From Gammaproteobacteria bacterium (GTDB taxonomy: Bacteria > Pseudomonadota > Gammaproteobacteria > SG8-11): a stretch of 32,580 nt of DNA. Under the pieces are notes generated by a model. That model worked only from the letters and a program-made list of their open reading frames with translations. It was not told the origin of the DNA and did not search any database. Position 1 is the first letter of the stretch. Every line of letters begins with the position of its first letter. Location of the stretch: assembly GCA_016200445.1 (NCBI GenBank), contig JACQEQ010000285.1, forward strand, positions 1-32,580. Reading direction: 5' to 3'. The position numbers and the translations under genes are program-made. Below are positions 4,232-19,634 of this stretch, in pieces.

Positions 4232-4307
4232 TGGTGCCGGGTAGAGGAATCGAACCCCCGACCTGCCGCTTACAAGGCGGCTGCTCTACCGACTGAGCTA
4301 ACCCGGC
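4232..4307 (-). tRNA. tRNA-Thr (anticodon UGU)
   Basis: 76-nt cloverleaf read on the minus strand. Acceptor GCCGGGT/ACCCGGC; D arm GCTC-AGTCGGTA-GAGC; anticodon arm GCCGC-CTTGTAA-GCGGC (anticodon TGT); T arm GGGGG-TTCGATT-CCTCT; encoded CCA end. Confidence 0.93.
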
Positions 4308-4343: not shown

Positions 4344-5273
4344 TTATTTACACGCGCGCTGTTGCTTTTCGACCTTTTCGGTTCCGCTGACCACATCTTT
4401 GATCTGCGCCGCCGTGATACTGCGCCGCGCATTTTCGTCGACATCGACCCAATACTGCGTGGTGCTGTCGAAGTGTTTTTCAACCACCGGCCGAAAACCC
4501 AATTTAACCAGGGCGTTGACGCGTTTGTTGGCCTGCGCCTCCGAATCGTATTTACCCAGCGAGATCATGTTTTCGTATTCGCCGTTGCTGATGATGCTGG
4601 CGTCGGCGACTTTTTTCTTACGCAACTCTTCCAACCTTTTATTCGCAGCGCGTTCATCCTTGGTGGCTTCGATTACCCACCATTGCTGGGTACTGCGGAT
4701 TTCGTGTTCACGGACGGTGGTTCGCAACCCCAAACCCAGACCGACTAGCCTGGCCATGACGCTTTCGGCATTGCTCAATACGCTGAAGGGACCAAGCGCA
4801 AAACAGGCCGTGGCTGCGGGCTCGGCCGCCGGACGCGGGCGTTCGCGAGCGGCGCGTTCTTCGTTTTTACGTGCCGCCAGATTGGCCTCGATGCGTTCCG
4901 CCTGGCGTGCTTCAGCGGCCAAAACCTTTCTTTCGAGCTCGGTGAGCGGCGGCACCGTCTCGATTACGGGAGTTACCGGCGGCGGAGTACGAACGTTATC
5001 TGCATTGCGCGCCGCCCCCGGGCGCAACGCAGCATCGTCCGCTGACGCTCGCGCTGGATCGCGCGTCCGCTGGGCGCTCGTGTTAGCGGGCTCGGAAGTT
5101 TCGGCCGGACTCTTGGTACCGCTTTCGACTTCGTGCAACAGCCGTATCGACTTATTGCCGCCGGGCGATTTTGTCGCCGACACCGCCACCGGCTCGTTGG
5201 AAGGCTGGTGTAATTGATGCCAAATCAGAAACGCGGCATTGACGAACAACAACAGAAAAAATGCCCACCTCAT
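4344..5273 (-). CDS. SPOR domain-containing membrane-anchored protein
   Basis: N-terminal TM helix MRWAFFLLLFVNAAFLIW, then a low-complexity Ala/Pro/Arg linker, then a C-terminal SPOR-like repeat (FALGPFSVLSNAESVMARLVGLGL ... ISLGKYDSEAQANKRVNALVKLGF). It has a 4-nt ATGA overlap with coaX and sits in the usual position downstream of birA-coaX. Confidence 0.8.
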   Translation of the reverse strand: MRWAFFLLLFVNAAFLIWHQLHQPSNEPVAVSATKSPGGNKSIRLLHEVESGTKSPAETSEPANTSAQRTRDPARASADDAALRPGAARNADNVRTPPPVTPVIETVPPLTELERKVLAAEARQAERIEANLAARKNEERAARERPRPAAEPAATACFALGPFSVLSNAESVMARLVGLGLGLRTTVREHEIRSTQQWWVIEATKDERAANKRLEELRKKKVADASIISNGEYENMISLGKYDSEAQANKRVNALVKLGFRPVVEKHFDSTTQYWVDVDENARRSITAAQIKDVVSGTEKVEKQQRACK

Positions 5274-6022
5274 GAGGTACTCCCGAAGACCGCCAAACCA
5301 TCCAATACCAAATAAGGTTCGTGGCGCAGCGTGCCGCGCAGCAAGGGCAATAGCACCGGGGCATCGCCGCCGGTAATCACGCCGCTGACGGGGGCATTTA
5401 AATTACGCTGCGCATCTGTCAACACCCGATCAACAAAGGCGGCTGCGGTGAGGCGCGTGCCGGCCAGAACCCCGGCTTGGGTATCCGTCGCCAGCCAGAC
5501 TTCCGGCGCCGTTAGGTCTTGCTGCAGGCCACCGATCCCGGAGGTGTCGCGCGTCAGCGCACTGCACATCGTCACCAAGCCGGGAGTGATCAATCCGCCG
5601 CGATGCTGTCCACCGGCATCGAACACATCCGCCGTGATGGCTGTGCCGCAATCGATCACACACACCGCCGTATCGGGCAGAATGCGGCGCGCGGCGATCA
5701 TTCCCAGCCAGCGATCCACGCCCAGCCGGTCGGCGCGCACATAGGAATTTGTCACACCATGGCCCTGCTTCTGCGCATGCGCGAATTCGGTGTGCAGTTG
5801 CCAGCGTTTCTGTACCCAGTCGTAGAGCGCATCGGCGATTTTAGTGCCGACCACGTTCGACACCAACACGCGCTCGGGCGCCGCGATCCCGCGCCATTGC
5901 GCATCCAGATTACGCGCGAACAACGCGGGCTCGTGCGCCACCGCGCCCGTGCGGGTGTGCACGCCGCCTTCCCATAAGGACCACTTCATGCGCGTATTGC
6001 CGATATCTGCCAACAGCATCAT
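5270..6022 (-). CDS. coaX: type III pantothenate kinase
   Basis: MMLLADIGNTRMKW N-terminus typical of CoaX, and 250 aa from ATG 6022. The ORF-track start at 6244 is a read-through of the upstream repeat element. GAGG lies 8 nt upstream of ATG 6022. Confidence 0.9.
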   Translation of the reverse strand: MMLLADIGNTRMKWSLWEGGVHTRTGAVAHEPALFARNLDAQWRGIAAPERVLVSNVVGTKIADALYDWVQKRWQLHTEFAHAQKQGHGVTNSYVRADRLGVDRWLGMIAARRILPDTAVCVIDCGTAITADVFDAGGQHRGGLITPGLVTMCSALTRDTSGIGGLQQDLTAPEVWLATDTQAGVLAGTRLTAAAFVDRVLTDAQRNLNAPVSGVITGGDAPVLLPLLRGTLRHEPYLVLDGLAVFGSTS

Positions 6023-6295
6023 CCTAGTAACCTCAGTTGAACGGTCTGCGGAGTGCGACCCGTTGAGTGTAGGGCAAGGCGCAATGAGCGAGGAATAGCC
6101 AGCTATTCCGATGATTCCTATCGCGCTGGTATTTGCGCGAGGTAGGACGAGTTGCAACGCCGCCATGCGCGCAACGGGGCGTGCTCCACAGACCGTAGCG
6201 GGCCTCACGCCGAGGCTGAAGTCTGGAAAAACTAAAAATATCAATACCTGCGCACACTTGCTTATGCCTCGCAGCGGTCAACTGGGGTTTCTAGG
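6023..6295. mobile_element. MITE-like non-autonomous element, copy 1 (273 bp)
   Basis: Termini CCTAGTAACCTCAGTTGAAC (6023-6042) and GTCAACTGGGGTTTCTAGG (6277-6295) are inverted repeats (about 17/19). A perfect 5-bp direct repeat ATCAT flanks the element (6018-6022 and 6296-6300). It aligns along its whole length with 11736-11972 apart from a 36-bp indel. Central hairpin GGAATAGC-CA-GCTATTCC at 6092-6109. No transposase. Confidence 0.85.
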
Positions 6296-6296
6296 A

Positions 6297-7277
6297 TCAT
6301 GTGGGAATTCCTCGCAAGCTCAGTTCTCCGGAAGCATAAGCGCGGGTAGCGCCACCTTCTGCGAATAATAACGCACCCTGCGCGTCGATGCCGTCCACCG
6401 TGCCGCGCAACGTGTGCTGCGGCAAGTGTAGTTCCGCTGCCTTGCCCACGTAAGCATCGCGCGCGCGCCAGCGCGGCAGAAAATTTGCGAAGCCGTCGCG
6501 CTCGAACGTCTGCAACGCTAGTAGCACGTGTTGCAACAGCATCGCCGCCAGATGATTGCGCGCCGGCATCAGGCCGGTAATCGATACGATGTCGACCCAC
6601 GGTTGCTCGATGGCGGACGCCGCCTCGGCTGCCATCGCCACATTGATACCGATACCGGCGACGACATAACATGGCCCGGAAGACTCGCCGGCCATTTCTA
6701 CTAACACACCGGCCAGCTTCCGGTTCTGCCACACGACATCGTTGGGCCACTTCAAGCCAACACCTGGCACCGCAGCGGCGTGCAGGGCTTCGGCGACGGC
6801 AACTCCTAGCGCGAGACTCAAACCGCCCGCCACCGCAGCACCGGAATTAAAACGCCATAACACCGACAAATAAATGTTGCCGCCAAACGGCGATACCCAG
6901 GCGCGGCCGCGCCGTCCGCGGCCCGAGGTCTGCGTTTCGGCCAGACACGCCCAGCCGCCCGGCGCGCCGCGTTGCGCATGTTCCACCAGATAGGCATTGG
7001 TCGACGGCAATTCCAGATGTACGTCTAAACGTTTCAACGCTGTACGCGCCGGCGGCGACAGCGCGTCGAGAATCTCGTTCGCCGCCAGCAACTCTAACGG
7101 TTCCGGCAAGCGATAACCTTTGCCCGCAACTGCATAGGCGTCGATACCGAGGGCTTTAAGTTTCTGCAGATCGTTCCAAATCGTCGCACGCGTCACACCT
7201 AACTCTTCGCCCAGTGCGACCCCGGAATGAAAGCGGCCGTCGGCGAGCAGGCGCAACAACGCATGCGTATTGCTCAT
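6297..7277 (-). CDS. birA: bifunctional biotin--[acetyl-CoA-carboxylase] ligase / biotin operon repressor
   Basis: N-terminal HTH (LGEELGVTRATIWNDLQKLKALGI), the biotin-protein-ligase GRGRRGRAW motif, 326 aa, and synteny with coaX. Confidence 0.93.
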   Translation of the reverse strand: MSNTHALLRLLADGRFHSGVALGEELGVTRATIWNDLQKLKALGIDAYAVAGKGYRLPEPLELLAANEILDALSPPARTALKRLDVHLELPSTNAYLVEHAQRGAPGGWACLAETQTSGRGRRGRAWVSPFGGNIYLSVLWRFNSGAAVAGGLSLALGVAVAEALHAAAVPGVGLKWPNDVVWQNRKLAGVLVEMAGESSGPCYVVAGIGINVAMAAEAASAIEQPWVDIVSITGLMPARNHLAAMLLQHVLLALQTFERDGFANFLPRWRARDAYVGKAAELHLPQHTLRGTVDGIDAQGALLFAEGGATRAYASGELSLRGIPT

Positions 7278-8854
7278 CGTGTCAACAGGCCGCGGGCTGT
7301 GGATTGCAGCAACCAGCCGCGCACGGTTTCACGCAAGCCGGCATCGAAAAAATCCATCGGGTTGTAATCGTCGGTCAGCACCAGGGCATCGGCATCGACC
7401 GGCAGCGGATAGCTACTGCGCAGAAAACTACGCACCTGCGCATTCACGCGCGGATGAATGTCGATTCCTGGAACCTCGCCCAACGGCAGCATATTGCGCT
7501 TACCGTTGTATGCAAAAATCTCCAGATTTCCGACGCCGCCTTCTAGATCGGTCACATCGAATACCGGATAAACATCGACCGATTCGAACACGCTGCGCAA
7601 GGTGCGCACCACCGAACTGGTCATGCGTCGCTGCGCTCCGATGCTGCCGATAAAGTTAACACCGAGCACGCCGCCGGGACGCAGATGTTGCGCGATCAAG
7701 CTAAACATCTCGCGGCTAAGCAGGTGGTAGGGCATCAGATCGCCGTTATAAGCATCGAGCACGATGTAGTCGTACATACGCGCGCTGGTCAGCAGAAAAT
7801 GACGCGCATCGGCTTCGATGACATCGCCATTGGTGGTAAAACCAAAGTAGTCGCGCGCCAATTGCGGGATCAGCGGATCAATGTCGACGACATCGGTGCG
7901 GATGCCGCGCGCGCTGTACCAGCCGGGAATAAAGCCCGCGCCCAAACCCACCACTAAACAATCGCGGCCGTTGGGTTGCAGCCGGTAAGGAATGTACTGC
8001 ATCAAATACGGGTAGCGATTCACAGTCAGACGCCGCTGCAAGTCTTGCCCGCCCTGATGCAACCCGTCGATCAACAACTGGCGGTCTACCGCATCGCCAT
8101 AGTCGACATCGACCACTTTGACGGAACCGTAAAAGGTGTCGCCGGAAAATACTTCGCGCACTTGTGCATCGGGCATGCTCAGCGCGGGCGGTACGATCCA
8201 CTGCGGCGCCAGGACAAGACACAAAACCAATGCTGCACCGGCAATGACCAAACGCCGCAAGGCCGCGAAATAAGCGGCGGCTAGCAGCAACAAGGTGAAT
8301 CCCACCGCGTAAAACGCCTGATTTACGCCCAAATACGCGATCATGAAAAATCCGGTCAGCGCCGTGCCGGCCACACTGCCGATGGTGGATAACGCATAGA
8401 GTCCGCCCACCGTGCGGCCGATGTTATCGACGGCACGCGCCGCGATCTTAACCAGATACGGCGACACGCTGCCCAACAATAACAAGGCCGGGCCGAATAA
8501 AATCATCGAACTTGCAAAGGCGCCGGTGCGCAAACCCAGCGGCAGGCAGGCTTCCAGCACCGGCGCTTTCAACCACGGAATCAGCAACACGCATATTCCG
8601 GCGGCGGCGATCAACGCGTACAGATCGACGCTCTGCCCGCGCCGGTCGGCCAATACGCCGCCGAACCAATAACCCAGCGCCAATGCAATCATCGTGACGC
8701 TGATCAACGAGGTCCAAACAAACAGACTCACGCCGAAAAACGGCCCGATCACGCGCGAACCCAACACCTCGATCACCATCACCGCCGCCCCGCACACCAG
8801 CGCGCTGAACAACAGATAGGCGAACAATAATTTACTGCGACGAGCTTCAGTCAT
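7274..8854 (-). CDS. fused polytopic membrane / spermidine-synthase-like (aminopropyltransferase fold) protein
   Basis: The N-terminal half has about 7 hydrophobic helices. The C-terminal half has a class I MTase/SpeE-like signature (CLVVGLGAGFIPGWY ... YDYIVLDAYNGD ... LRPGGVLGVNF). 4-nt ATGA overlap with birA. Confidence 0.8.
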   Translation of the reverse strand: MTEARRSKLLFAYLLFSALVCGAAVMVIEVLGSRVIGPFFGVSLFVWTSLISVTMIALALGYWFGGVLADRRGQSVDLYALIAAAGICVLLIPWLKAPVLEACLPLGLRTGAFASSMILFGPALLLLGSVSPYLVKIAARAVDNIGRTVGGLYALSTIGSVAGTALTGFFMIAYLGVNQAFYAVGFTLLLLAAAYFAALRRLVIAGAALVLCLVLAPQWIVPPALSMPDAQVREVFSGDTFYGSVKVVDVDYGDAVDRQLLIDGLHQGGQDLQRRLTVNRYPYLMQYIPYRLQPNGRDCLVVGLGAGFIPGWYSARGIRTDVVDIDPLIPQLARDYFGFTTNGDVIEADARHFLLTSARMYDYIVLDAYNGDLMPYHLLSREMFSLIAQHLRPGGVLGVNFIGSIGAQRRMTSSVVRTLRSVFESVDVYPVFDVTDLEGGVGNLEIFAYNGKRNMLPLGEVPGIDIHPRVNAQVRSFLRSSYPLPVDADALVLTDDYNPMDFFDAGLRETVRGWLLQSTARGLLTR

Positions 8855-8901
8855 GCGGTTCTCTTGAAAAAATAAATAATGAAGGAGCGTGGTATTTGCA
8901 A

Positions 8902-10446
8902 TTAAACCGGCGCGTACACCCCGACTTCCTGTTCGCGGCCTTTTACCCGGAATTCGCCGCAGCCGCGCATCGCGCGTGCAAGCTCAGCGGGCAACCGCCG
9001 GTACACTTCGGCACTGATCAGCACGTCGGTGCCCAATTCCTTATTCAGCGTTTCCAGGCGCGATGCGACATTCACCGCATCGCCGATCACGGCGTATTTC
9101 ATGCGCGTCTCGCCACCCAGGCTTCCCGCCACGACGCGCCCGGTATGCACACCGATACGCGCTTTCAGTTGTGCGATGCCGCTTTGCATCCAGCACTGCG
9201 CCAGTCCGCTGGTTTGCCATTCGCCATTCAGCGCCACGAGGCGATCCCGCATTGCCAATGCACAACGCAACGCTTGCTGCGGGTGATCCTCGCGATAATA
9301 CGGTGCGCCGAATACGGCGAGAATCGCGTCGCCGAGAAATTCAATCACGCAACCGTGATGCGCATCGACCAGCACATTCATCGCGCCTAAATACTGATTG
9401 AGCATGTCCAGCAGTTGCACCGGCGGCAGATGTTCGCAGATGGTCGAATAGCTCGACAAATCGCTGAACAAAATCGTCACCTCGCGCTCTTCTGCACCAG
9501 GCGCCGCTGCGTCGCGATGCTCGAGCAACTCGCGCGCGACATCTTCGCTCACGTAACGCCCGAAGGTGGCGCGGATGAATTCGCGGTCTTGCAGGCCTTC
9601 GGCCATTTTATCGAAATGGCGGCTCATCAGCCCGAATTCGTCGCGACGATTAAGGCTCAAACGCGTGGTAAGTTCGCCGCGCGCGACCGCTGCCGTGGCG
9701 TCGATGATGCGCGTCAAGGGTTCACGCACACTGCGCGCAACCGCCAATGAAATCAGACCCAACAGCACGGCGGCGATTCCAAACACCGCCAGCGTGACCC
9801 ACAACACATCGTGTTTCATCACTTCAATCCGCGACGCCTGCACATCGGCACCAACCAGCGCGATACCTTTGCCGCTCGCGTCGCGCACCGGCGCATAGCC
9901 CGACAAGGTCAGGCCGAATTCATCGCGAAACGGTTCGTTCTCGACGGCCGGCGCATCGAACCCGCTTTGCAACACCGGCAATGCTGTGGCGTCGTATTCG
10001 TCGCCCGGCGTGGCAAGGGCGCCGTCCTTGACAAAATCAATAAAAAATCGCAAATGGCCCGGCTGGCCGGTCAAGCGCAACAAATAAATGCTTTGGATGT
10101 CGGAGTCGATTTGCGCCGCTGCGGCAAAACGCGTGCGCAATTCGTTGTGGTAGGCGGTTGCTTCGTGTGCGTCGAGCGCGATTTCGGCCAGCCGTTCGGC
10201 ACTCACCGATGCGGCCAACCCAGTCACGGTAGTGAGCAGGCGCCGTTGCAGATGCGATAACTCGGAATTGACGCTGTAGAAATAGAAAATTGTCGCGATC
10301 AGCACCAACGACAACAACACCGTGCCGCCATACAATCCGGTCAAGCGTAAATGGAAGCGCTGCCAAGCGCGCAAACGCAGCAGCGGGTCAACGGCCGCAT
10401 TGATCTTGGGTGGACCGTCTGGAATCTGTAAGGGTGTCGCAGACAT
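8902..10446 (-). CDS. membrane sensor adenylate/guanylate cyclase (periplasmic domain-HAMP-class III cyclase)
   Basis: Two TM segments flank a periplasmic region of about 180 aa. A HAMP-like segment follows (VREPLTRIIDATAAVARGELTTRL). The class III cyclase core is present (REVTILFSDLSSYSTICEHL ... EFLGDAILAVFGAP ... GIHTGRVVAGSLGG). Confidence 0.88.
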   Translation of the reverse strand: MSATPLQIPDGPPKINAAVDPLLRLRAWQRFHLRLTGLYGGTVLLSLVLIATIFYFYSVNSELSHLQRRLLTTVTGLAASVSAERLAEIALDAHEATAYHNELRTRFAAAAQIDSDIQSIYLLRLTGQPGHLRFFIDFVKDGALATPGDEYDATALPVLQSGFDAPAVENEPFRDEFGLTLSGYAPVRDASGKGIALVGADVQASRIEVMKHDVLWVTLAVFGIAAVLLGLISLAVARSVREPLTRIIDATAAVARGELTTRLSLNRRDEFGLMSRHFDKMAEGLQDREFIRATFGRYVSEDVARELLEHRDAAAPGAEEREVTILFSDLSSYSTICEHLPPVQLLDMLNQYLGAMNVLVDAHHGCVIEFLGDAILAVFGAPYYREDHPQQALRCALAMRDRLVALNGEWQTSGLAQCWMQSGIAQLKARIGVHTGRVVAGSLGGETRMKYAVIGDAVNVASRLETLNKELGTDVLISAEVYRRLPAELARAMRGCGEFRVKGREQEVGVYAPV

Positions 10447-10594
10447 TGCTTGGCGGGCATCACATTATGTGCGGTGGCCATCTTCTTACAATTCACCGGC
10501 GGCATCAATGACTCAGGTTTTAGCGTATTTGTCCGATGTTTTTAACTGGCGTGTAACTACGCGCAGCCCTTAAGAACCGAACCGGTAATGTCCT

Positions 10595-11023
10595 ATGAAT
10601 CGTAACTGCAGCCTGACCGTCCTAACGCTGTGCGCACTGATGCTGTGCAGCGGTGCTCAGGCGGAACTCTATTCGTGGAAAGACAGTAACGGCAAAACGA
10701 TTTTCAGCGACCGTCCGCCGTTGGACTCCGAAAAAAATGTCTCCTCCTCGGGTGGAAAAGCATCGAAAAATGCCGCGCCCGGCGAAAAAAGCGACGATCC
10801 GGCGAGTGCCCAGCTGCGCGAGGAGGCCAAAAAAAAGAAAGTACAGGATAACGACAAAAAATTAATCCAATGGCGCTGCGCCGAACTCGACAAAGAATAT
10901 CAAGCGTTGTTAGCTGCCTATGAAGAGGTGGCAAAAACCAGCATCAAGAAAGCTGCCGCACTAAAAGTGGACGCCGAAAATCATAAAGACACCATTGACA
11001 AGCTGTGTAATTCACCCCCCTAA
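10595..11023 (+). CDS. DUF4124-type secreted protein
   Basis: Signal peptide MNRNCSLTVLTLCALMLCSGAQA, then ELYSWKDSNGKTIFSDRPP, which matches the DUF4124 signature (Y-W-D..G...SD.PP), then a lysine/glutamate-rich C-terminal helix. Confidence 0.75.
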   Translation: MNRNCSLTVLTLCALMLCSGAQAELYSWKDSNGKTIFSDRPPLDSEKNVSSSGGKASKNAAPGEKSDDPASAQLREEAKKKKVQDNDKKLIQWRCAELDKEYQALLAAYEEVAKTSIKKAAALKVDAENHKDTIDKLCNSPP

Positions 11024-11024
11024 T

Positions 11025-11735
11025 TTATTCACCTAAATACGCATGCCGGACCTGCGCATTGGTCAGCAGTTTTTCAGCCGCATCTGTCAACGCAATGGTT
11101 CCGCTTTCCATCACGTAGCCGCGTTGGCTGATTTCCAAAGCGCGCTTGGCATTCTGTTCCACCAGCAGAATCGTTACACCCTCCTGCGCAATAGCGCGGA
11201 TGGTTGTGAAAATCTTTTCCACCATCAGCGGCGCCAGGCCCATGCTGGGCTCGTCCAACAGCAACAGCCGGGGCTGACTCATCAGCGCACGTCCCATGGC
11301 CAGCATTTGCTGCTCGCCACCAGACAAGGTGCCCGCTTGTTGCTTGCAGCGTTCCGCCAGGCGCGGGAATAACGCGAACACGCGTTCCAGATCGTTTTTT
11401 ATCCCGGCGCGGTCCGTACGCGAGTACCCGCCCATGTCGAGATTTTCACCAACACTCATACGCCCGAAGATGCCACGCCCCTCCGGCACCAAAGCCAAGC
11501 CGCAGCGCGCGATCAGGTGCGCAGGTTGATGTGTAATCGCTTTACCATCGTAAAGCACTGACCCGTGTGCGACCGGCAGCAATCCACACAGCGCTTTCAG
11601 CAGGGTGGATTTTCCCGCGCCGTTGGCGCCGATCAGACACACCAGCTCACCGCGTTCGATCTGCAGGTCGACGCCCTTCACCGCTTTGATGCCCCCGTAC
11701 GACACCGCAAATTGTTTGAGTTCGAGCAGGCTCAA
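11025..11735 (-). CDS. livF: branched-chain amino acid ABC transporter ATP-binding protein LivF
   Basis: Walker A GANGAGKST, signature LSGGEQQML, Walker B LLLLDEP. 236 aa if started at TTG 11735 (product SLLELKQFAVSYGG), with GAGG 8 nt upstream. The ORF-track start at 11885 is a read-through of the repeat element. Confidence 0.9.
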   Translation of the reverse strand: MSLLELKQFAVSYGGIKAVKGVDLQIERGELVCLIGANGAGKSTLLKALCGLLPVAHGSVLYDGKAITHQPAHLIARCGLALVPEGRGIFGRMSVGENLDMGGYSRTDRAGIKNDLERVFALFPRLAERCKQQAGTLSGGEQQMLAMGRALMSQPRLLLLDEPSMGLAPLMVEKIFTTIRAIAQEGVTILLVEQNAKRALEISQRGYVMESGTIALTDAAEKLLTNAQVRHAYLGE

Positions 11736-11972
11736 CCTAGAAACCTCAGTTGGACGATCTGCAGAGTGCGTCCCGTTGGACGCAGGGCAAGGCGCAACGA
11801 GCGAGGAATAGCGAGCTATTCCGACGAGTTGCAACGTAGCCATGTGCACAACGGGGCGTGCTCCGCAGGTCGTAGCGGGGCTCACCTTCAGGGTGAAGCG
11901 TCATTTGGCCATGATCCTTAATAACACCATGCACTTGCTTATGCCTTGTAGCGGTCAACTGAGGTTTCTAGG
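11736..11972. mobile_element. MITE-like non-autonomous element, copy 2 (237 bp)
   Basis: Termini CCTAGAAACCTCAGTTGGAC (11736-11755) and GTCAACTGAGGTTTCTAGG (11954-11972) share 17 nt of perfect inverted repeat. The flanks are CTCAA / TTCAG and share the central TCA. Same plus-strand orientation as copy 1. Central hairpin GGAATAGC-GA-GCTATTCC at 11805-11822. Confidence 0.85.
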
Positions 11973-11973
11973 T

Positions 11974-12750
11974 TCAGGCTACGGCTCCGCCCAGATAGGC
12001 TTCGATCACGCGCGGATCACAACGCACCTGCGCCGGAATGCCTTCGGCGATTTTTTTGCCGTAGTCAAGCACTGCTACCCGGTCGCACAAACCCATCACC
12101 AGTTTCACGTCGTGCTCGATCAGCAGCAAGGTCACTCCCAACTCGCTGCGCAGCCGTTGCAGCAACTGCGTCAACGCGGCACGCTCGCTGGGATTCATGC
12201 CGGCGGCGGGTTCGTCCAGGGCGAGCATTTTGGGGTCGGTCGCCAACGCGCGCGCGATTTCCAGGCGGCGTTGATCGCCGTATGACAAATGTTTGGCCAG
12301 CGCACGCGCGTGCGTGCCGATGCCGGCCACGTCGAGCAATTCGTGGGCACGCTTGCGCATCGCCGCTTCTTCGCCGCAGACGCGTGCCGGGCGTGTAATC
12401 GCGCCCCACACGCCGGTGCGGGTACGGCAATGCCGCCCGACCATGACATTTTCCAAGGCGCTCATGTTGGCGAACAGGCGAATGTTTTGAAAGGTGCGCG
12501 CCAAGCCTAAATGCACGATCGCGTGCGGCTTGTGTGCCAGCAACGCCTGCCCGTCAAAATGCACTTGTCCGCCGGTGGCGGTATACAGCCCGGTGAGCAC
12601 ATTAAACAAGGTTGTTTTGCCTGCGCCATTGGGTCCGATCAAACCAAAAATTTCACCGGCGTTGACCGTCAGCGATACATCGCACAACGCGGCCAGGCCG
12701 CCGAAAGATTTGTCGATATGGGCTGCCAGCAGCAGCGGCGGCGCGTTCAT
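11974..12750 (-). CDS. livG: branched-chain amino acid ABC transporter ATP-binding protein LivG
   Basis: Walker A GPNGAGKTT, signature LSYGDQRRLEIA, Walker B LALDEPAAG, and the LivG-type C-terminal extension. 258 aa. ATGA overlap with livM. Confidence 0.92.
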   Translation of the reverse strand: MNAPPLLLAAHIDKSFGGLAALCDVSLTVNAGEIFGLIGPNGAGKTTLFNVLTGLYTATGGQVHFDGQALLAHKPHAIVHLGLARTFQNIRLFANMSALENVMVGRHCRTRTGVWGAITRPARVCGEEAAMRKRAHELLDVAGIGTHARALAKHLSYGDQRRLEIARALATDPKMLALDEPAAGMNPSERAALTQLLQRLRSELGVTLLLIEHDVKLVMGLCDRVAVLDYGKKIAEGIPAQVRCDPRVIEAYLGGAVA

Positions 12751-16575: not shown

Positions 16576-16587
16576 GCGGAGCGGCGC

Positions 16588-16607
16588 GGGCGCGATGAAT
16601 CGCGCCC
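16588..16607. repeat. REP-type palindrome GGGCGCGAT-GA-ATCGCGCCC in the livK-livH intergenic spacer
   Basis: Perfect 9-bp stem with a 2-nt loop, immediately after the livK stop (16608-16610) and followed by CTAC. The same motif recurs at 19611-19634 and, inverted, at 19586-19601. Confidence 0.75.
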
Positions 16608-17780
16608 CTACTGCTTTACGGTCTCCAGCACTGTCCACTTGCCGCCTTTTAATTCGTACAGCGTCACTGGACCACCTTTTAAATCACCCTTGGCATCGAA
16701 GCTGATCTGACCGGTGACGCCGGTGAAATTGACGTTATTCAGCGCTGCCAAATAAGTTTGCGGCTCGACCGAGTTGGCGGCTTTCATTGCGTTGATCATG
16801 GCCCACGCGGCGTCGTAGGCGTACGGCGCATAAAGCTGGATCGCGCCGTATTTCGCAGTGTATTTGCTGATGAAGTCTTTGCCGCCGGGCATGGTGTCGA
16901 TGGGCAAGCCGGGCGATGACGCGATGACGCCTTCGCCATCCGCACCCGCGATACCGACGAACTCGGTGGTTTGCACACCGTCGCCGCCGAGCAGCTTGGC
17001 TTTGAGGCCGAGACGTTTCATTTGCTTGGCCATCGGCGCGCCTTGCGGATACATGCCGCCGAAAAACACCACGTCCGGCTGCTTGCCTTTGATCGACGTC
17101 AAAATCGCGGTGAAGTCATTGGCCTTGTCGCTGGTGTATTCGCGCACCACCACTTGCGCACCGGCGGCTTTGGCGGTTTTCTCGAATTGATCCGCCAGCC
17201 CTTGACCATACGCTGTGCGGTCATCGATCACGGCGATTTTTTTCGCGCCCATTTTGGTCGCGGCATAATTGCCAAGCACCGCGCCCTGCTGTTCGTCGTT
17301 GGCCATCACGCGGAACGCGGTTTTATAACCCTGGCCGGTATACGGTATCGCGGTGGCCGATGGCGAAATTTGCGGAATGCCTGCGTCGGAATAAATTTTC
17401 GACGCCGGAATGCTGGTGCCGGAGTTCATGTGGCCGATCACGCCTTTCACTTTTTGATCCGCCAGTTTTTGCGCAACCACGGTCGCGGTGCGCGGATCGG
17501 TTTGATCGTCCTCGCTGATCATTTCGAATTTAACTTTCTTGCCGCCGATCACCAACCCTTGTGCGTTGGCTTCATCGAAGGCCAGGCGTGCGCCGTTTTC
17601 GTTGTCTTTACCCAGCGACGCTTGCGGCCCGGTGAGCGGCGCGACTGAACCGACACGGACTACATCTTCACTTGCGGCTTGTGTCGCAACAGGCGCTGCG
17701 TTGGTAACGGGCTGCTCTTTTTTTCCACATGCGGCGGCGGCACAACATATGGCGATCAATAGCGGGTGATGGAGTTTCAC
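16608..17780 (-). CDS. livK: branched-chain amino acid ABC transporter substrate-binding protein (lipoprotein-type signal)
   Basis: Signal MKLHHPLLIAICCAAAACGKK, then a type I periplasmic-binding fold of the Leu/Ile/Val family (VRVGSVAPLTGPQASLGKDNENGARLA ... GHMNSGTSIPAS). It is the first gene of the liv operon. Confidence 0.9.
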   Translation of the reverse strand: MKLHHPLLIAICCAAAACGKKEQPVTNAAPVATQAASEDVVRVGSVAPLTGPQASLGKDNENGARLAFDEANAQGLVIGGKKVKFEMISEDDQTDPRTATVVAQKLADQKVKGVIGHMNSGTSIPASKIYSDAGIPQISPSATAIPYTGQGYKTAFRVMANDEQQGAVLGNYAATKMGAKKIAVIDDRTAYGQGLADQFEKTAKAAGAQVVVREYTSDKANDFTAILTSIKGKQPDVVFFGGMYPQGAPMAKQMKRLGLKAKLLGGDGVQTTEFVGIAGADGEGVIASSPGLPIDTMPGGKDFISKYTAKYGAIQLYAPYAYDAAWAMINAMKAANSVEPQTYLAALNNVNFTGVTGQISFDAKGDLKGGPVTLYELKGGKWTVLETVKQ

Positions 17781-18578: not shown

Positions 18579-19583
<1,005 letters not shown>

Positions 19584-19585
19584 GT

Positions 19586-19634
19586 GCGCGATTCATCGCG
19601 CCTTCACTGCGGGCGCCATGAATGGCGCCCCTAC
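19586..19634. repeat. pair of REP-type palindromes in opposite orientation (BIME-like) between hemF and rsmD
   Basis: GCGCGAT-TC-ATCGCGC at 19586-19601, and GGGCGCCAT-GA-ATGGCGCCC plus CTAC at 19611-19634. Same family as 16588-16607; the loop ATTCAT is the complement of ATGAAT. Confidence 0.7.

Follow-up and report, generated by a model that had tools for sequence, protein, structure and literature searches.

Putative miniature transposable elements at the birA/coaX and livG/livF junctions of a gammaproteobacterial contig

How can an operon accommodate a long non-coding block exactly where the stop codon of one gene would overlap the start codon of the next? This question is raised by a 32,580-nucleotide stretch of DNA from Gammaproteobacteria bacterium (GenBank assembly GCA_016200445.1, contig JACQEQ010000285.1, positions 1 to 32,580; referred to below as the window), in which 273 bp separate birA, the gene for a bifunctional biotin ligase and repressor, from coaX, the gene for type III pantothenate kinase. 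A first-pass annotation had described this block as an insertion resembling a MITE (miniature inverted-repeat transposable element), with a second copy elsewhere in the window. Here, we examined the termini, flanks and interior of both blocks together with related loci from other genomes. Both blocks are very probably copies of one non-autonomous DNA transposon, that is, a MITE. Although MITEs are a known kind of element, this repeat family is absent from the literature and databases that were searched, and it is unusual for a MITE in two respects: its target rule picks out stop codons and overlaps of starts with stops, and its internal hairpin is covarying and strand-asymmetric. The target rule, the recurrent insertion into overlaps, the location of the second copy in such an overlap and the covarying interior all go beyond what had been annotated before.

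Two copies in the window and their empty sites

Re-reading of the coordinates bore out the non-coding block between the TGA of birA and the ATG of coaX, as well as the perfect ATCAT repeat on its two sides. The inverted termini, previously drawn slightly longer, are 18 bp each, have CC...GG ends and are complementary at 16 of 18 positions (Table 1). The identities of birA and coaX are both above the NCBIfam cutoffs. As had been proposed, one pentamer carries the start of coaX and the other the stop of birA, so that the duplication leaves each gene its own signal; uninterrupted gene pairs of the window show the plain overlap (TCAT at 5270-5273, 7274-7277 and 12747-12750).

Homologues of CoaX (83-97% identity) were followed to their contigs. 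The birA/coaX junction is a 4-nt overlap with ATGAT present once in L124, L127, L128, L129, L130 and L131, while L125 and L126 contain a single GTGAT; the empty site that had been predicted was therefore found. Contig L129 is 91% identical to the window at the DNA level and lacks copy 1. Its BLAST alignment stops at window positions 6293/6022, and the two aligned segments overlap by the duplicated bases. At birA/coaX, the window differs from L129 by having gained exactly 273 + 5 bp, and copy 1 is a recent insertion that is missing from a 91%-identical relative.

It is extremely improbable that the 273 bp are not an insertion at all but an ancestral, conserved intergenic spacer or a leader with a regulatory role, or else a repeat of the REP/BIME or attC type. 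The block is indeed highly structured, repeated, extragenic and palindromic, as would be expected of such sequences. However, the direct 4-nt overlap with a single pentamer in seven relatives refutes an ancestral spacer, and constant termini with perfect but variable 5-bp duplications recur at dozens of unrelated sites. REP and attC elements are not known to make target duplications.

The claim of a second copy held, with one detail different. Copy 2 aligns with copy 1 over its full length at ~85% identity, apart from a 36-nt module that is present only in copy 1, and it occupies the junction of two genes for ABC ATPases similar to livG and livF. A perfect flanking repeat was not found there: the flanks are CTCAA and TTCAG, of which only the central TCA is common to both, and the changed positions are those that the duplication had relieved of start or stop duty. 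In L124 and L125, livG and livF show a 4-nt overlap with one GTGAG or GTGAA, empty of the element, whereas the L129 contig starts inside the copy 2 element, beside livF. The insertion of copy 2 is thus common to L129 and the window and hence older, in agreement with its decayed flanks. The window contains four occurrences of a 17-nt terminal motif, compared with 0.05 expected by chance, and all four ends of the two copies match it. No further copies in the window were detected with a hidden Markov model of the family.

Table 1. Coordinates of the two element copies, their parts and the adjacent genes in the window
Feature	Position	Strand	Remarks
coaX (type III pantothenate kinase)	5270-6022	-	Downstream of copy 1; TIGR00671, 97 bits (cutoff 58)
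coaX ATG start	6022-6020	-	Read in sequence
Left target duplication, ATCAT (gene strand ATGAT)	6018-6022		Holds coaX start codon; single pentamer in relatives
Copy 1, non-coding block, 273 bp	6023-6295		Between birA stop and coaX start
Left terminal inverted repeat of copy 1, CCTAGTAACCTCAGTTGA	6023-6040	+	Gene strand reads ...CTGAGGTTACTAGG
Long rod-like internal hairpin of copy 1	6041-6196	+	Stems covary; loop motifs GGCAAGGCG, CAACGNNGCCATG
Extra 36-nt hairpin module	6110-6145	+	Marks 273-bp subfamily versus 237-bp form; also in L055, L077
Small conserved hairpin	6202-6216	+	Family consensus CTCACC-N5-GGTGAG
Variable A-rich stretch of copy 1	6217-6254		Directly after small hairpin
Right terminal inverted repeat of copy 1	6278-6295	-	Reverse complement is CCTAGAAACCCCAGTTGA
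Right target duplication, ATCAT	6296-6300		Holds birA stop codon
birA TGA stop	6299-6297	-	Read in sequence
birA (bifunctional biotin ligase and repressor)	6297-7277	-	Upstream of copy 1; NF008847, 325 bits (cutoff 293)
livF-like ABC ATPase	11025-11735	-	Downstream of copy 2; best-match name, LivF 291 bits, below cutoff of 441
Decayed left duplication, CTCAA (gene strand TTGAG)	11731-11735		Holds livF TTG start, 11735-11733
Copy 2, 237 bp	11736-11972	+	Termini 11736-11753 and 11955-11972; internal hairpin 11754-11873
Decayed right duplication, TTCAG (gene strand CTGAA)	11973-11977		Holds livG TGA stop, 11976-11974
livG-like ABC ATPase	11974-12750	-	Upstream of copy 2; best-match name, LivG 276 bits, below cutoff of 362

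Several other features of the window were recorded. Mechanical calling of open reading frames (ORFs) places frames inside both elements (6033-6281 and 11746-11958, minus strand; 82 and 70 amino acids, respectively), and the elements create in-frame upstream extensions of coaX (5270-6244, minus strand) and livF (11025-11885, minus strand). Coming after coaX is a SPOR-domain gene, and a tRNA-Thr(TGT) gene (4232-4307, minus strand) is located immediately downstream of that gene. Past the tRNA gene (window positions <4200) the relatives diverge: a phage-type integrase is present in L127 and L128, and the same spot holds a HigB/HTH toxin-antitoxin pair and a catalase in L124 and a catalase in L125. 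The region past tRNA-Thr looks like a variable spot of island integration. An unrelated GC-rich palindromic repeat, GCGGGCGCGATGAATCGCGCCCCTAC, occurs at 16586-16611, 19580-19602 and 19609-19634 in direct and inverted copies of 92-96% identity and resembles a REP-type extragenic palindrome.

Spread of the family and its target rule

Scans with the terminal motif yielded at least 119 loci from one genome per species and at least 120 loci from metagenomes. Loci with the same termini number at least 240 in Beta-, Gamma- and Zetaproteobacteria, which confirms that copy 1 belongs to a repeat family and is not a local oddity. The main hosts are Sulfuricella, Gallionellaceae, Thiobacillus, Rhodocyclaceae and Dechloromonas among Betaproteobacteria, and Thalassocella, Marinagarivorans and Lysobacterales among Gammaproteobacteria, and single metagenome-assembled genomes (MAGs) sometimes supply at least 12 loci. 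The subfamily of copy 1 is also present on the MAG contigs L043, L055 and L077 of 'Gammaproteobacteria bacterium'. All copies have CCTAG...CTAGG ends, the termini measure 17-18 bp and have the consensus CCTAGAAACCTCAGTTGR, and the far terminus is kept in ~200 paired copies. Element sizes peak at ~163 and ~236 bp and range from 118 to 681 bp, with extra hairpin modules in the larger forms (273, 293, 335 bp and up to 681 bp).

To define the target, we pooled 120 distinct insertions. The 5-bp flanking repeats are perfect in 66 of them and contain one mismatch in another 34. Position 2 is T and position 4 is A in all 66 perfect repeats, A or T occupies positions 1 and 5 with three exceptions, and no repeat was observed in the next five bases beyond the duplication, which served as an outward control. 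The target rule is W-T-N-A-W. A 3-bp TNA duplication in the style of IS5/Harbinger was rejected, since the duplication also includes the outer W bases, which vary. Whatever the base at N, the TNA core reads TAA or TGA on one strand, and ATGAW and TTGAW are the start/stop overlap of bacterial genes. When a pentamer that holds both a stop and a start is duplicated, the stop therefore stays with the upstream gene and the start with the downstream gene.

Insertion into such overlaps is a recurrent habit of the family. Among the first 64 elements, the duplicated core serves as the stop codon for an ORF 100 or more codons long in 17 cases and lies in a start/stop overlap in 10. The corresponding proportions are 4.2% and 0.73% for 6,823 unoccupied W-T-N-A-W sites of the same loci, and 16% and 2.9% for those unoccupied sites that are outside long ORFs, plus stops. 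Compared with this crude background of 'tolerable sites', overlaps are ~five-fold over-represented (p = 1.4e-5), whereas the enrichment of stops alone is marginal (p = 0.04). Of the pooled insertions, 16 fall into overlaps, 14 coincide with a stop alone and 13 with a start alone.

Terminal inverted repeats combined with a target duplication and the absence of a transposase place these elements within the operational definition of a MITE, and the earlier MITE-like reading is borne out by these features and by the empty sites. The duplication varies from copy to copy, the elements are small, and copies number dozens per MAG and hundreds over all taxa; an autonomous partner with the same termini was not found in the at least 240 loci (~1.6 Mb). 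The terminal motif had no match in a plasmid collection, and the four matches in a viral collection are due to chance, as they lack both partners and W-T-N-A-W flanks. The terminal sequence did not turn up in the literature that was searched.

The scans also returned some atypical members. The giant variants L200:205-885 (681 bp) and L252:1392-1876 (485 bp) carry several tandem copies of extra hairpin modules in the rod, with basal stem, conserved motifs and termini preserved, and contain no transposase ORF. At L098:90-2357, three members (335, 167 and 236 bp) are arranged in units spaced by ~930 bp with repeating flanks (gttccattat...; ttcaatggtt/ttgaatggtt), which looks like a tandemly duplicated gene unit with one element per junction. 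Both ends of the 167-bp copy in this array are 'right-type' (each with ACCGC) and its flanks do not match, suggesting that it is a product of recombination between copies. Solo or degenerate termini without a recognizable partner were observed at L020:1721-1737 and L199:9208-9224, one of them ~150 nt upstream of a birA homologue (Rhodanobacteraceae MAG) and the other directly after an ispB-like stop; both are probably decayed or truncated copies. In addition, terminal motifs occur on non-proteobacterial bins, including MAGs of Gemmatimonadales (L030), Terriglobales (L036), Prosthecobacter (L008), Anaerolineales (L052) and Nitrospiraceae (L041), with complete paired elements in L030 and L036. 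Mis-binning or horizontal transfer could explain these occurrences, or chance where the motifs are unpaired.

Internal hairpin and the downstream gene

To describe the interior, 40 copies were aligned in one orientation, the strand shown being the window plus strand. The aligned copies share invariant termini, a long rod-like hairpin that adjoins the left terminus and has the conserved loop motifs GGCAAGGCG, CAACGNNGCCATG and CGTAGCG, then the small CTCACC-N5-GGTGAG hairpin and, up to the right terminus, the A-rich variable stretch. Pairing statistics were calculated from the 26 copies without large insertions. Standard pairs fill 96.3% of the pair cells; the figure drops to 83% after column shuffling and to 34-40% after sliding of the partners. 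Changes on both sides are present in 29 of 58 pairs (18.6 +/- 1.8 in shuffles). Double changes are found at 25 of 32 pairs of the internal helix and at none of the terminal helix. Thus, it is the sequence that is constrained in the terminal helix, as expected of a protein-binding site, and the structure in the internal helix. A tandem U.G/G.U step is retained in most copies.

The two strands are not equivalent. The forward strand folds better than its complement in 39 of the 40 copies, by 13.7 kcal/mol on average, and the same asymmetry holds for all 28 copies of the 163-bp class. Of 35 copies that adjoin a gene, 27 have their better-folding strand antisense to it (p = 0.002); the ratio of antisense to sense reaches 12:1 in overlaps, and both window copies are antisense.

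It might be considered that the family is a mobile module of structured RNA (or single-stranded DNA), with the covarying hairpin as the payload and the termini as a mere vehicle. The hairpin could then be a mobilization RNA acting in cis or in trans, or an antisense or regulatory RNA. The strong covariation, the conserved loop motifs and U.G/G.U step, the strand asymmetry in both size classes and the orientation bias relative to genes all fit such a module, as does the observation that size variants add hairpin modules while the basal stems and motifs stay. Nevertheless, we regard it as unlikely. Rfam gave nothing at the gathering score in the window and nothing even at E <= 5 in positions 5900-12100, the window copies contain no internal promoter-like site, and the better-folding strand is mostly antisense to its neighbors, with no obvious source of transcription. 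Moreover, the arms of a palindrome can co-evolve through template switching without any RNA function, and the hairpin could be a 5' untranslated region inherited from a parent insertion sequence (IS).

A coding role for the interior is very improbable. An element might encode a small gene-sense protein whose frame ends at the duplicated TGA and re-creates the stop/start overlap. In 33 of 40 copies, the reverse-strand frame that ends in ...CUA GG|A UGA stays open across 60% or more of the element, and module lengths are multiples of three (12, 36, 42, 57 and 99 nt). However, the predicted peptides shift frame between subfamilies and show no conserved stretch upstream of the apical loop, and this frame contains stops in both window copies. 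Column variability shows no consistent 3-base periodicity, and GC-rich stems are naturally poor in stops. The small-protein reading was rejected on the basis of the unconserved frames and the stops in the window copies.

Both window copies are free of promoter-like and terminator-like sites, which is consistent with tolerance inside an operon. The original Shine-Dalgarno (SD) sequence of coaX now lies 278 nt upstream, within the end of birA. Read outward, each terminus is CTGAGGTTTCTAGG and provides a GAGG located 8 nt ahead of the regenerated start, which may act as a replacement ribosome-binding site for the downstream gene. In the predicted mRNA-sense fold, the termini pair with each other and the helix runs on into both pentamers, so that the UGA of birA and the AUG of coaX, together with the new SD, are held in a single predicted helix. 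By melting this helix, a ribosome that terminates on birA would expose the coaX start, and translational coupling might be largely kept. That coaX translation is coupled to birA across copy 1 in this manner is possible but doubtful.

Candidate transposase and relation to known elements

A DDE transposase of the IS1380/piggyBac type, encoded at another locus, may mobilize the element in trans. IS1380 and piggyBac have 5'-CC...GG-3' termini in common (PMC10045372), and the IS1380-family elements ISEcp1 (PMC6061673) and IS1247 (PMC3281130) produce 5-bp repeats; our element resembles the family in both its CC...GG ends and its 5-bp duplication. The left end of ISEcp1, CCTAGA, is the same as the first six bases of the element, and the pattern CCTA-R-A-WW-CC-W-C is found in both. 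When the ISEcp1 ends CCTAGATTCTAC and CCTAAATTCCAC (read from pCTX-M3) are compared with CCTAGAAACCTC, 8 and 9 of the first 12 positions match. The targets are AT-rich and centered on T..A, which is again similar to IS1380/piggyBac; piggyBac itself targets TTAA and has the ends CCCTAGAAAG. On the other hand, the element measures 160-680 bp instead of about 1.6 kb, has no transposase gene in it or nearby and possesses the covarying internal hairpin, and its W-T-N-A-W rule is stricter than the quoted ISEcp1 duplications.

A partner was sought in several ways. No homologue of the ISEcp1 transposase was detected in the loci by phmmer at E <= 10, no conserved or transposase-like ORF was observed inside the elements, and the ORFs beside unpaired termini in the genome loci showed no recurrent protein. 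Long terminal pairs with matching duplications proved to be only composites of neighboring MITEs, and the 681-bp (L200) and 485-bp (L252) elements were rejected as ISs since they are expansions of hairpin modules. Because no partner was found, we hold the IS1380/piggyBac-type assignment only tentatively, as a plausible reading of the ends and duplications. In the pooled loci, the sole recurrent protein was an S9-type peptidase, which is not a transposase. Unpaired termini are located beside genes for S9-family (prolyl oligopeptidase-like) peptidases on three metagenome contigs, in the L240:8123 and L222:99 regions and at L189:12814-13011; peptidases of different lineages are 37% identical, and the termini probably represent coincidental insertion near the same kind of gene.

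The MITE could instead be moved by a transposase outside IS1380, of the IS701 family (ISAba11-like), the Tn3 family or another type that duplicates 5 bp in AT-rich targets, an option to which we give a low probability. ISAba11, a member of the IS701 family, has characteristic 5-bp repeats such as TATAG and ATTTA (PMC7885321), and its duplication, the feature compared here, agrees in length with that of the element. Tn3-derived TIMEs are non-autonomous, as is our element, and are bounded by 38-bp Tn3-type repeats with 5-6-bp duplications in AT-rich targets (PMC4133298). The lack of an IS1380-like gene near any copy also agrees with a different enzyme. However, the ends of the element are 18 bp long and read CCTAG..., in contrast to the 38-bp repeats of TIMEs. 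Tn3-type ends start with GGGG, unlike the CC of the element. Furthermore, CC..GG was named as a shared hallmark of IS1380 and piggyBac (PMC10045372), and the six-base identity with the ISEcp1 left end speaks for that family.

Among the described MITEs, Chunjie of Geobacter uraniireducens (Chen et al. 2008) provides a functional precedent. Chunjie is 178-235 bp long, forms a very stable hairpin and sits within an operon, the original title stating that the operon structure is undisturbed (PMC3184786, PMC10969869); its termini are 21 bp, it is A+T-rich, and it is flanked by 9-bp direct repeats such as ACGACCGGT (PMC3184786, PMC6042816). Our element is similar in its MITE size, stable hairpin and operon insertion, but differs in its 5-bp W-T-N-A-W duplication, GC-rich hairpin and end sequences. 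Identity with Chunjie was rejected because of the repeat length (9 bp versus 5 bp). Correia, ERIC and RUP-type MITEs are short intergenic inverted-repeat elements that are co-transcribed with their neighbors, and their RNA hairpins have orientation-dependent effects (PMC3184786, PMC2229807). The present family is likewise a short inverted-repeat element that folds as a hairpin, while its termini and target duplications are different. The target duplication of Correia and RUP is TA, and we know of no report of a W-T-N-A-W rule or an enrichment at start/stop overlaps for Correia, ERIC or RUP-type MITEs.

Several points weigh against the account given here. The ISEcp1 duplications ACTCA, TAATA and TAAGA (PMC6061673) break W-T-N-A-W, and 5-bp repeats in AT-rich DNA are also made by ISAba11 (PMC7885321) and Tn3-derived elements (PMC4133298). 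The candidate transposase type is drawn solely from end and duplication features, and neither an autonomous partner nor an IS1380-like ORF was found in the ~1.6 Mb around the at least 240 copies. The enrichment in overlaps was derived from crude ORF-based gene calls in loci that were picked for holding an element. The copies are phylogenetically related, and hence the orientation and covariation counts are non-independent events. Finally, the proposed roles of the new SD and of coupling stem from RNA-folding predictions.

A wider possibility is that this MITE has adapted to operon life: its target rule selects stops and overlaps, its ends supply an outward ribosome-binding site, and its rod, selected and strand-specific, folds the insert away and would re-create coupling across 160-680 nt; alternatively, the hairpin might be an RNA or single-stranded-DNA cofactor of an IS1380/piggyBac-like transposase. 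We consider this rather unlikely at present.

In spite of these reservations, the filled site and the empty site in genomes that are 91% identical provide a clean and dated case of an essential operon that tolerates a transposon. Recognition of a widespread proteobacterial family with a simple target rule helps annotation, as its copies give rise to spurious ORFs, which gene callers could take for hypothetical proteins, and to false N-terminal extensions of coaX and livF. In metagenome assemblies, the element also causes breaks at contig ends. If the link to IS1380/piggyBac is true, this would be the first bacterial MITE family of that superfamily within the literature searched. The covarying, strand-asymmetric hairpin is a candidate cis-acting RNA that may restore translational coupling between the genes it separates.

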